A stretch of 63,589 nt of DNA, from NCBI RefSeq assembly GCF_055900595.2, contig NZ_PP320290.1. One strand, given 5' to 3'. Within the stretch, counting starts at the first letter, position 1. Every line of letters starts with the position of its first letter. The position numbers are program-made. Positions 45,001-48,000 of this stretch are shown here, one piece after another. Origin of the DNA: a plasmid.

Positions 45001-48000
45001 TTAACAAATGGCGTTATGCCGGCCGGCCACTGACGGTTTTTGGTGTGCCTGTTATCTCGTTTCTTGTGTACTTCATCTGGTTTCCGTTCCCGTCAGTAAA
45101 AACCTTTGTTATCTGCACCTGTGTGGTTCTCTTTTACTTTCTGCTGGCCATGATGGGCTACACGTTACCGGTGCTGTACCAGGTCATTCTCCGGGTTATC
45201 CGCGGGAAAAAACTTACCGGGCGGCCGTGGTGGTACCGGCGCTCTCAGCGATAACACATAACTACAGGGGTAGACAGTATGGCGAAACCTGAAATTGCAA
45301 CTGAAAGAACCCGTCTGAGTATTCCCTTTGACGATCGCCAACGTGCAATACGTGCGGCCGGCAAACTGGCTGATGGCAGTAATGCTCTGGACTACGTGAA
45401 GGAAGAAAAGGTGTGGTATGCACAGCCGGGGGCCAACCTGAGCCGGCTGAAAGAGTGGATTTTTGACCCCAATAAAGTGATCGAAGAACCGCCCCTGGAT
45501 ATTCAGGCCATTGAAGATGAATTTACGGCGTGGCTTGAAGAGCGCGGTGCCATTATCAAAGACCCCATAGAGTTCGATGGCCAGAAGCATTATGTCGATA
45601 CCGTGGACGGTAAAGCTGGTTCAAGAAAGGGGGTGTATGCCGCCTTTCTGGATGGCCGACCTGCAGGGTGGTACAGGGACTATAAGAACGGTGGTGAAAT
45701 TCAGAAATGGGTATCTACCGGCGCAGCCCCTAACCCTGAACAAATGGCCATGCTCCGTGCTGATGCTGCGGCAAGGCGTGAACAAAGAGCTGCAGCGCAA
45801 GCGGATAAGTTTGATCAGACCGCTAACCGGTTGATGGAAGAATATAACCGGCTTCCGGATGCCACGGGAGATCTGGCATACCTGAAAAACAAACAGGTCA
45901 TTGCCGCTAACGGCCTTAAAGCTGATGAGCGGGGCAACGTTGTGATCCCTCTGTTTAATGCTGATGGCGAGTTCAGGACCCTTGAGCGCATCTGGTCCGA
46001 CGGTAGTAAACACCTTGAAAAAGACGGCCAGGCATGGGGGAGTTTTTTCGTTGTGGGTGGTCAACTGAAGGATGGTGACAACCTGCTTTATGCCGAGGGA
46101 TATGCGACAGCAGCCAGTATCAGCGAAGCCATCAATCAGCCTGTGATCATGACGGTTAATGCCGGCAACATGGTGGAAGTTGCTGGCCGCCTGAAAGACA
46201 CCTTTCCAAACAGCACTCATTACTTCCTTGCTGACAATGACATTTATAAAGACGAGAACGTTGGGCTAGAAAAAGCGACAGAAGCTGCAGAGCTGACTGC
46301 CGGCCATGTTCTGGTCCCTGCCTTTAGCAACCCGAAAGAAGGGCTTACTGACTACAACGATTTGCATGTCTCTGAAGGGCTGGAGCAAGTCAGATTGCAG
46401 GTAGAAGGAGCCATTAATCAAATGAACAGGGTAGACACTATGCCGACTGATAACCCGAACATTACTGACGTTAATCACAGCTCGACTGACAGCGCTGCCG
46501 TTGCAGATCCTGAAAAAGCCGCGCCGGTGGCCAGCGCCCCTGCAGCTGCCGAACCGGAGGAAACCGCGCCGGTGGCCAGCGCCCCTGCAGCTGATGAACC
46601 GGTGGAAGCCGCGCAGGTGGCCAGCGCCCCTGCAGCTGATGAACCGGTGGAAGTCGCGCCGGTGGCCAGCGCCCCTGCAGCTGATGAACCGGAGGAAGTC
46701 GCGCCGGTGGCCAGCGCCCCTGCAGCTGCTGAACCGGAGGAAACCGCGCCGGTGGCCAGCGCCCCTGCAGCTGCTGAACCGGAGGAAGTCGCGCCGGTGG
46801 CCAGCGCCCCTGCAGCTGCTGAACCGGAGGAAACCGCGCCGGTGGCCAGCGCCCCTGCAGCTGCTGAACCGGAGGAAACCGCGCCGGTGGCCAGCGCCCC
46901 TGCAGCTGCCGAACCGGAGGAAGCTGTGCCGGTGTCCAGCACCCCTGCAGCTGCTGAACCGGAATACACCGCACCAACAGATCGAGACGGCGATGATGAA
47001 GAGAGTAATAGCGCCAGTGATCTTGAGGCGTATGCCGCTATGATGGCCTTTGGCGGTGAAACAACTGACTCCGCTCAGCAAAAGCCTGAAAGGATAGCGC
47101 CCAGCGAATCTGTAGCTAATACCGCCCCGGCTGAAAATGAAACCGAGGAGAAGAAAAAAACAAACGAAGAACTGGAAAACGGCATACGCTGGGCAACCAA
47201 CGATAATGCAGAAACGCCCCCAAAAGAACGTATAGACCTGGAAGGGTTAATTGCCCGGTTTGGGTACAGAGCAGAGAAAGACTATACGGCGTATACGCTT
47301 GATGGACAGGATGCGTTTTACGATTACGGCTCACATCTGCGTATGGCTACCCCTGAAGCCAGCCAGAGTGACGAGATGATCCTGGCGGCCGTTCTAACCG
47401 CGGATAAGCAACATCATCGTGGTATTGAAATCACCGGCAGTGACGAATTTAAAGAGCGAGTGTTTAACCTTATCAGTGAATACAACATTGAGGTGAAACT
47501 GACTAACCCAGAACAAAGGGTTAAATTGCTCGAACTCAAAAAAGCAAATGAAACAGCAAAAGAAACGGCAAAAGAAAATGTTGCTGATTCAAATGCGAAT
47601 AAGCAGGAAGGGGCAAACGAAAAGACAAATTCATCAGTTCAGCAGAATGGAATGCGCTGGGAAGAATCGGCCTCTGTGCAGCCGAAGAAGCAGAATGCAT
47701 CTGATACTCAAAAGGAAGATAAAGCTGCAGGTGAACCCTGGGAGAAAGGCGTTATCGTCGCGCATGGACGTGCTAAGTATGAGTGGAAAGAAGATGAATC
47801 CATGAACTACTTTGTCACCCTCAAAAATGAACATGGAGAGAAGACACTCTGGGGGAAAGACCTTGAGAGAGCGGTTAAAGATGCTGGTGTAGACACAGAA
47901 CGTCTTGTTACAGTCAGAAAGCTGGGATTTGTGGATGTTGAGGTGAATGCACCTGTCCGTGATGAAAGCAACAAGATCGTTCGTTATGAAACTATCCAGA

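Follow-up and report, generated by a model that had tools for sequence, protein, structure and literature searches.

A copy-number-variable, in-frame 45-bp minisatellite in the predicted disordered linker of the Sog-like conjugative primase of plasmid pOXA-48

The window analyzed here (the whole stretch of DNA, 63,589 bp, NZ_PP320290.1) is the IncL carbapenem resistance plasmid pOXA-48. Its gene pri (45279-48716, plus strand) encodes a Sog-like conjugative primase of 1145 amino acids (aa), as assigned from the listing of open reading frames (ORFs), sequence identity, annotation, and gene order, and contains a tandem array of ten 45-bp units at 46521-46970 on the same strand (aa 415-564). The gene is 100% identical in many 63,589-bp pOXA-48 records; 946 plasmid records match it, and the plasmids with the identical gene were found in Klebsiella, Escherichia, Enterobacter, and Citrobacter hosts. 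In public records, the product is named "LPD7 domain-containing protein" (RefSeq) or "DNA primase TraC" or "pri" (submitters). The gene order in the transfer operon is relaxase-traH-traI-traJ-traK(icmT)-pri-traL-traM-traN, which places the primase gene inside the conjugative transfer region.

The ten units are arranged head-to-tail and share about 93% mutual identity. Tandem Repeats Finder (TRF) delimited the array at 46516-46963 with a period of 45, 10.0 copies, 94% matches, no indels, and a score of 763, and a second, independent repeat search returned 10 copies with a spacing of exactly 45 bp. The lag-45 identity within the array was 93.3% (378/405), compared with a mean background of 26.7% in the window and a maximum of 38% in any other 405-nt stretch of it. 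The 26-nt core of the unit, searched with up to 3 mismatches, had 10 matches in the plasmid, all of them within the array, while none was expected from 100 shuffles. The units cut at 46521 + 45i follow the codon register (frame 0) of the pri ORF; being head-to-tail, of a length that is a multiple of three, and in frame with a real gene, they constitute an in-frame coding minisatellite. Their translations include the consensus APVASAPAAAEPEET, the variants APVASAPAADEPVEA and AQVASAPAADEPVEV, and VPVSSTPAAAEPEYT in the last unit, and the order of units at the DNA level can be written as ABCDEFEEGH. The encoded peptide of 150 aa is composed of 37% Ala, 19% Pro, and 18% Glu and has 30 acidic and 0 basic residues. 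The G+C content of the array (72.5% versus 51.2% for the plasmid) is high because of the Ala, Pro, Glu, and Val codons, as expected. The ten-copy array of the window is not an assembly artefact, since the identical 3438-bp gene is present in hundreds of independent records.

The array lies between two recognizable parts of Pri. The N-terminal part begins with a DUF5710 domain (aa 10-61; 45306-45461, plus strand), which was matched by Pfam PF18974 at 24.9 bits, under the cut-off of 26.5 bits, and which scored above the Pfam cut-off in homologues. It is followed by a DnaG/T7-type primase (Toprim) catalytic domain (aa 132-389; 45672-46445, plus strand) identified by PHROG, Pfam, and Foldseek. The DNA primase family phrog_2249 matched aa 132-389 at 6.8e-59, Pfam Toprim_3 matched aa 270-367 at 28.1 bits, just above its 27.2-bit cut-off, and the predicted N-terminal fold matched the T7 gp4 primase fragment 1nui (E=5e-5) and DnaG catalytic cores. 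This domain carries the motif AEGYATA (aa 272-278; 46092-46112, plus strand), of which A272, E273, G274, Y275, and T277 are invariant in an alignment of eight homologues. The EGYATA motif is characteristic of I- and P-type plasmid primases. With a Toprim/DnaG-type catalytic domain, the EGYATA motif, and a position between traK and traL, the assignment of pri as a transfer-associated Sog-like conjugative primase is supported, primer synthesis and export being predicted activities. Downstream of the array, the LPD7 domain (aa 665-747; 47271-47519, plus strand) was recognized by Pfam PF18821 at 46.3 bits against a cut-off of 27 bits; the conserved block YKLDG..AF.D...ELTGSDEFK was observed there in the alignment, and block means of the predicted local distance difference test (pLDDT) were 73-86.

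Between these two domains, aa 384-649 (266 residues; 46428-47225, plus strand) form a predicted disordered acidic linker that contains the array. In the AlphaFold2 model, this segment had pLDDT values below 50, with block means of about 25-34 over aa 390-649, and a single 6-residue helix was its only secondary structure. The block means of its flanks were mostly 70-93 for aa 1-383 and 73-86 for aa 650-762, the part that includes LPD7, so that the segment is predicted to be without structure between two folded domains. The linker comprises 21.6% Asp and Glu, 3.1% Lys and Arg, 13.9% Pro, and 28.2% Ala, with a net charge of -48 over aa 388-646. The model thus supports the view that the array represents the core of a 266-residue intrinsically disordered linker running from the primase domain to the LPD7 domain. 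An earlier note on this DNA had described ten 45-bp repeats that encode 15-residue units with few substitutions and form a linker between the TOPRIM domain and the C-terminal region of a transfer-associated primase. The repeats, the APVASAPAAAEPEET-like peptides in frame with pri, the nature of the gene, and the location in a linker with folded flanks all agree with that description; one refinement concerns the extent, since the array makes up only the middle 150 of the 266 disordered residues.

The number of units was compared among related plasmids by taking the distance between the matches of a 400-bp left flank and a 400-bp right flank, searched as a joined query. Two evenly spaced samples of 59 records each were taken, one from PLSDB plasmids (of 943 plasmid records) and the other from complete E. 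coli genomes. Ten copies were the commonest state in both, being found in 38 of the 59 PLSDB plasmids and 42 of the 59 E. coli genomes. The remaining arrays had (PLSDB plasmids and E. coli genomes, respectively, each of 59) 2 copies (1 and 0), 5 copies (3 and 3), 6 copies (2 and 4), 7 copies (8 and 4), 8 copies (2 and 4), 9 copies (2 and 1), 12 copies (2 and 1), and 14 copies (1 and 0). The array length was an exact multiple of 45 bp in 51/59 and 55/59 records. Most of the non-multiples differed by 3 bp, apparently in the flank, as the unit register was unchanged in two such records, and a single record per sample was off by 1 bp. The protein lengths of close relatives (1115, 1145, 1160, 1175, 1190, 1205, 1220, and 1235 aa) correspond to 8 to 16 units, and Pri of pCTX-M3, published as 1070 aa (PMC6112013), corresponds to 5 units; a 5-unit array was also found in an IncM record. 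Over all IncL/M relatives, the array ranges from 2 to 16 units in 45-bp steps, a copy-number polymorphism in whole units among close relatives for which assembly artefacts, considered below, are a caveat. Among the sampled records with identical flanks, about 92-93% have 10 units; the array is therefore variable but not hypermutable.

The order of units was informative about how the alleles differ. In the pOXA-48 lineage, the edge units are constant and the interior differs: besides ABCDEFEEGH in the window (10 units), the alleles ABCDEFEEEEFEGH (14 units, pOXA-48E1), ABCDEEEGH (9 units), ABCDEEGH (8 units), and ABIEEGH (7 units) were found, and in the last one, unit I is a C/F hybrid with its 5' part from C and its 3' part from F. 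Internal duplications and deletions, conserved edge units, and a hybrid junction unit are what slippage or unequal exchange between near-identical units would be expected to produce. The arrays of more diverged IncL/M plasmids are made of different unit variants, synonymous codon changes included, and because these are different unit sequences, the differences between lineages are not due to misassembly. As a separate observation, the 7-unit allele ABIEEGH (protein WP_219724342.1) was identical in NZ_CP067314.1 and NZ_CP022150.1, two pOXA-48 plasmids from Basel wastewater, one of E. coli and the other of Enterobacter roggenkampii.

Homologues showed a wider recurrence of repeats at this position. 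A tblastn search with the primase domain found it on 4241 plasmid records, and the linkers of nine proteins of the same architecture (Pri and eight further proteins) were compared. Across all nine, the stretch from the primase domain to the LPD7 domain was unalignable, while both of its flanks align. The nine linkers are 174-423 aa long, contain 16-22% Asp and Glu and 2.5-8% Lys and Arg, carry net charges from -25 to -58, and are mostly rich in Pro, Ala, Ser, and Thr, so that composition is kept and sequence is not. Tandem repeats unrelated to that of pOXA-48 were observed in the linkers of Aeromonas pASCH21 (39 bp x 5.7, PAAALDNQEQAAA) and Pseudomonas syringae PP4 (189 bp x 3.5). Two related K. 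pneumoniae IncFII/MPF_I plasmids have an 18-bp (APEAAA-like) repeat in 14 versus about 8 copies; their proteins, of 1137 and 1107 aa, differ by exactly 30 aa, and the genes lie at 2986-6399 and 3486-6809 of their respective loci. From a search of 1.84 billion representative proteins, 44 diverse relatives (50%-identity clusters) with an N-terminal primase and a length of at least 900 aa were retrieved, and 8 of the 44 contained tandem repeats of 12-35 aa directly after the primase domain, each of a different Pro/Ala/Glu/Thr-rich unit. As judged from these sequences, unrelated tandem repeats arose independently several times at the same linker position in the Sog/Pri family, and the repeat of pOXA-48 is one instance of this recurring process.

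Given the directly established anatomy, reading frame, domain context, predicted disorder, copy-number polymorphism, and convergent repeats, the array is probably an in-frame coding minisatellite in the disordered acidic linker of pri whose unit number changes by slippage or unequal recombination. The ten 15-residue units would form the core of a flexible, extended, acidic Ala/Pro/Glu-rich tether that connects the primase module to the LPD7/C-terminal module. As the units are near-identical, they would be prone to replication slippage or unequal recombination, which would add or remove whole units and give rise to the alleles of 2-16 units; with a unit length that is a multiple of three, each gain or loss would leave the reading frame intact. 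The conserved property of the linker would then be its length and composition (acidic, proline-rich, and unstructured) and not its sequence, and this may be why unrelated repeats occupy the same spot in other plasmid families. The function of the protein would tolerate such changes of linker length. The earlier note had expected linkers of variable length that expand and contract by slippage, and had named an invariant repeat number or an artefactual array as results that would speak against it. The variability holds, with 2-16 copies across relatives, although some variants within the pOXA-48 lineage may be misassemblies; the patterns of unit order are those expected of slippage or unequal exchange, a mechanism that we infer from them, and the array of the window is genuine.

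Several points weigh against the flexible spacer or the evidence for its variation. The AlphaFold2 model of Pri was built on an alignment of only 8 sequences, and the charge-hydropathy values over the array are borderline (-0.11 to +0.04) because Ala and Val raise hydropathy; therefore, the call of disorder rests mainly on structure prediction. When 34 distinct units were compared, codons V3, S5, A9, and E11 were invariant, and 11 of the 28 variant codon types were synonymous, which may mean that the peptide is under more constraint than a passive spacer would be. The spacer role is likewise something that we infer. Finally, part of the variation of the pOXA-48 lineage in databases may be short-read misassembly, and a collapsed assembly graph is another possible source of a hybrid unit such as I.

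The last point can be extended to the possibility that the repeat is real and the true array stable, with its length variation being mostly an artefact of sequencing or assembly. An array of 450 bp made of near-identical units is too long for short reads to span, so that assemblers collapse or expand it, and trouble of this kind is on record. DelaFuente et al. dropped the variants of pOXA-48_K8 at 48,500-48,853, which Sanger sequencing had identified as false positives of Illumina assembly in a zone of "highly repeated nucleotides" (bioRxiv 10.1101/2022.05.31.493991). The flanks of the array match at 48014-49261 in 65,499-bp plasmids, and this puts the array at about 48,414-48,861; the discarded zone is therefore inside it, and the false positives come from exactly this part of the plasmid. 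Literature searches for a description of the 45-bp repeat returned only this methods note on a "highly repeated", Illumina-unreliable zone. That approximately 92% of the sampled pOXA-48-lineage records with identical flanks stand at 10 copies, and that many variant proteins are singletons from draft contigs, would also suit a stable array. However, records labelled as complete vary too, among them RefSeq complete E. coli genomes; the 7-unit allele recurs in two separately deposited plasmids of two species; the pCTX-M3 protein was reported at a length equal to 5 units (PMC6112013); and copy number also varies in an unrelated repeat, of 18 bp, that another plasmid family carries at this position. 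Moreover, diverged lineages differ in copy number with different unit sequences, which misassembly cannot create. An artefact can explain part of the variation within the lineage and not the differences between lineages, and as a general account of the variation it is unlikely.

A functional role of the acidic sequence itself was considered next to its role as a spacer. The Glu-rich linker could be a multivalent signal that recruits Pri to TrbA, the DotM-like subunit of the type IVB coupling complex of the plasmid, for export to the recipient, or an acidic DNA mimic that regulates the binding of single-stranded DNA (ssDNA) by Pri itself. A DotL/DotM/DotN-like coupling complex, of unclear role in conjugation, has been modelled for pOXA-48 (PMC12365149), and in Legionella DotM, the residues R196/R197, R217, and R314/R315 mediate binding to acidic, Glu-rich peptides (PMC5802825). 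The TrbA of the window (5501-6805, minus strand) is a DotM homologue, matching 6sz9_B at E=2.5e-12, and is basic at 3 of the 5 peptide-binding positions of DotM (R182, K183, and R302). A strongly acidic linker is kept in all of the compared homologues, some codons of the unit are invariant, and the Sog protein of IncI plasmids is exported independently of DNA, as cited in a passage of PMC6112013. Like the E-block signals of the Legionella Dot/Icm system, the linker of Pri is acidic, Glu-containing, and unstructured, Pri is a candidate substrate for a machine related to Dot/Icm, and the plasmid encodes a DotM homologue. The likeness is a resemblance only. An E-block signal is a C-terminal, very Glu-dense segment of about 30 aa, whereas the segment of Pri is internal (aa 415-564 of 1145) and of lower Glu density, the linker being about 20% acidic against roughly 40-45% in the DotM-binding peptides (PMC5802825). 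A similarly acidic linker is found in an Aeromonas IncU homologue whose plasmid was typed as mobilizable only (a mating-pair system was not called), an allele with 2 units exists, and both TrbA binding and Pri export are predicted only. A signal of either kind is quite unlikely. A more specific form of the idea, in which the linker would serve as a multivalent docking signal for TrbA and the repeat number would tune the efficiency of Pri export to recipients, is distinctly improbable. If true, docking to TrbA would give the coupling complex a protein client and would explain the long acidic linker in every Sog/Pri homologue.

It is very improbable that the units act as nucleic acid, as iteron-like sites or as hairpins in messenger RNA or the transferred strand, with coding being secondary. 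Each unit contains the imperfect palindrome GCGCCGG-TGG-CCAGCGC, and unit 10 combines a C-to-T with a G-to-A change that together would preserve the stem. However, neither strand folded better than dinucleotide shuffles, whether as one unit or as two, with z-scores of the folding energy from -0.48 to +0.32 (-1.59 for unit 10), the putative stem is broken in relatives about as often as it is kept, and no inverted repeats were reported in the repeat search. Synonymous changes accumulate while the peptide is kept, and homologues conserve the composition of the linker and not the DNA sequence. A hairpin or structured RNA was rejected on the z-scores of about 0 and the broken stems, and iteron-like or dispersed sites were rejected on the absence of the unit core elsewhere on the plasmid and the location of the array wholly inside a conserved ORF. 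A phase-variation (contingency) switch turning pri on and off has a practically negligible probability and was rejected: coding tandem repeats can act as switches, and a few records annotate pri as two coding sequences (CDSs), but a whole-unit change of 45 bp, a multiple of three, cannot shift the frame, and the observed variants are in frame, since the differences are exact 45-bp multiples in 51/59 and 55/59 arrays, and a 1-bp deviation was limited to one record in each sample.

The in-frame minisatellite in a disordered linker has counterparts in other proteins. Linkers with a variable number of in-frame tandem repeats are known from the Ala-Pro linkers of 2-oxo-acid dehydrogenase E2 chains and from the Glu-Pro/Lys-Pro region of TonB. 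They share with the array of Pri in-frame head-to-tail units, a Pro/Ala-rich unstructured peptide, copy-number polymorphism, and tolerance of length change. The array of Pri differs from them in being purely acidic, without basic residues, and in belonging to a protein that is probably exported via a type IV secretion system (T4SS).

The closest known systems are the primases of related conjugative plasmids. Pri of the IncM plasmid pCTX-M3 and of other IncL/M plasmids is an orthologue whose flanks are about 97-99% identical and which carries 45-bp repeats of the same family in the corresponding place. Unit variants differ among these plasmids, which have 5-10 units in the sampled pCTX-M3-type records, 2 in pNE1280, 12 in pNDM-HK, and 10 in pOXA-48. 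Sog (SogL/SogS) of the IncI1 plasmids R64 and ColIb-P9 resembles Pri in its operon position (traJ-traK-primase-traL) in an MPF_I, Dot/Icm-like system, and in the Pfam layout of DUF5710, Toprim, a long acidic low-complexity linker, LPD7, and a C-terminal region, whereas the identity is only about 28-37%. The linker of the IncI Sog that was examined (about 370 aa, net charge -58) is of low complexity and has no tandem repeat. The LPD7 and C-terminal part of Sog (IncI) is tied to coating of ssDNA and export to the recipient, while export of Pri is a candidate property only. Deletion of sog lowered the transfer of R64 only about 10-fold, whereas deletion of pri abolished the transfer of pCTX-M3 and was complemented poorly (PMC6112013). 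CRISPR interference (CRISPRi) silencing of pri destabilizes pOXA-48 in clinical strains (PMC12361523), and insertions in pri were not significantly depleted in transposon sequencing (Tn-seq) in E. coli MG1655 (PMC12365149). The repeat was not addressed in the pCTX-M3 deletion, CRISPRi, or Tn-seq studies.

Near the boundary between the primase domain and the linker, the in-frame ATG codons M382 (46422) and M388 (46440) (46422-46442, plus strand) are putative SogS-like starts, and the sequence AAGGAG is located 11 nt upstream of M382. The candidate short isoform would have 764 aa (from M382) or 758 aa (from M388). In 6 of 8 homologues, an in-frame ATG follows a purine-rich stretch at the primase/linker boundary; the IncI Sog is one of these six, its boundary ATG being M412, which gives the published 844-aa SogS, and a 689-aa short form was proposed for Pri of pCTX-M3 (PMC6112013). 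These sequence features suggest a conserved short isoform starting just before the repeat. With a start at M382 or M388, the repeat would form the N-terminal region of this isoform, and if the docking idea were true, the docking repeat would also be the N-terminal part of the putative short Pri.

Beyond LPD7, a second, shorter disordered linker (aa 763-818; 47565-47732, plus strand) is rich in Lys, Glu, Asn, and Ala, has pLDDT below 50, and separates LPD7 from the C-terminal beta-rich region. It is overlapped by a tandem repeat of 12 bp x 3.2 (TRF, 47539-47577), which encodes an ETAKETAKEN-like sequence. The C-terminal beta-rich region (aa 819-1145; 47733-48713, plus strand) is conserved with Sog and other homologues in the alignment; strands were modelled by AlphaFold2 at aa 821-920 with block-mean pLDDT mostly of 63-81. 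A weak likeness to the C-terminal part of the MobP1 relaxase was found at aa 795-913 (47661-48017, beginning inside the second linker), with NCBIfam NF041450 at 41 bits, far under the 200-bit cut-off; it may point to a module that two likely T4SS substrates have in common. The Pri model also gave weak Foldseek matches to proteins containing oligonucleotide/oligosaccharide-binding (OB) folds (RuvBL and RPA). A sequence search of the whole Pri protein against PDB chains gave no match, and neither did a PHROG search of its C-terminal half.

Because of its stop-free nature, the repeat also generates long by-product ORFs, as the earlier note had foreseen for the opposite strand: 271 aa, the longest (46266-47081), 168 aa (46471-46977), and 164 aa (46475-46969), all on the minus strand, plus one of 180 aa in a different frame of the plus strand (46501-47043). 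Their translations are themselves 15-aa repeats, and none of them is annotated in the two public records inspected (RefSeq and submitter). As regards the annotation of pri itself, the gene is given as two CDSs ("toprim domain-containing" and "LPD7 domain-containing") in NZ_CP031216.1, NC_025134.1, and NZ_MK249857.1; the distance between the flanks deviates by 1 bp in NZ_CP031216.1, and either an error of sequencing or a true pseudogene may account for this. The traL gene, as annotated, starts about 35 nt before pri ends (48682-48716, by mapping), and a Hha-family and H-NS-family gene pair is located antisense between traL and traM (approximately 49195-49807). A weak tandem repeat of 21 bp x 2.2 with 77% matches was found at 50863-50909, within the 383-aa ORF 50579-51730 (traN, DotH/IcmK family).

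The repeat of pri is an ordinary coding minisatellite, located in a disordered linker and on a plasmid that has been sequenced many times, and reveals no new mechanism; its zone was already flagged in the literature as an assembly problem, and the repeat is a newly documented member of the coding minisatellites in disordered linkers. In practical terms, short-read assembly and variant calling are known to go wrong at the array, and differences of 45n bp in plasmid length need checking before interpretation. Tracing of pOXA-48 by single-nucleotide polymorphisms is difficult because the plasmid is so conserved, and resolution could be gained from the repeat locus in pri once its variation is verified; the 7-unit allele shared in Basel wastewater indicates that the array might mark plasmid transfer epidemiologically. 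Given the importance of pri for pCTX-M3 transfer and for the stability of the plasmid in clinical hosts, the alleles of 2-16 units represent a ready-made set for testing the function of the linker. For the Sog/Pri family, the array adds one more case of the birth of a repeat in a disordered linker, a process recurring independently across the family.

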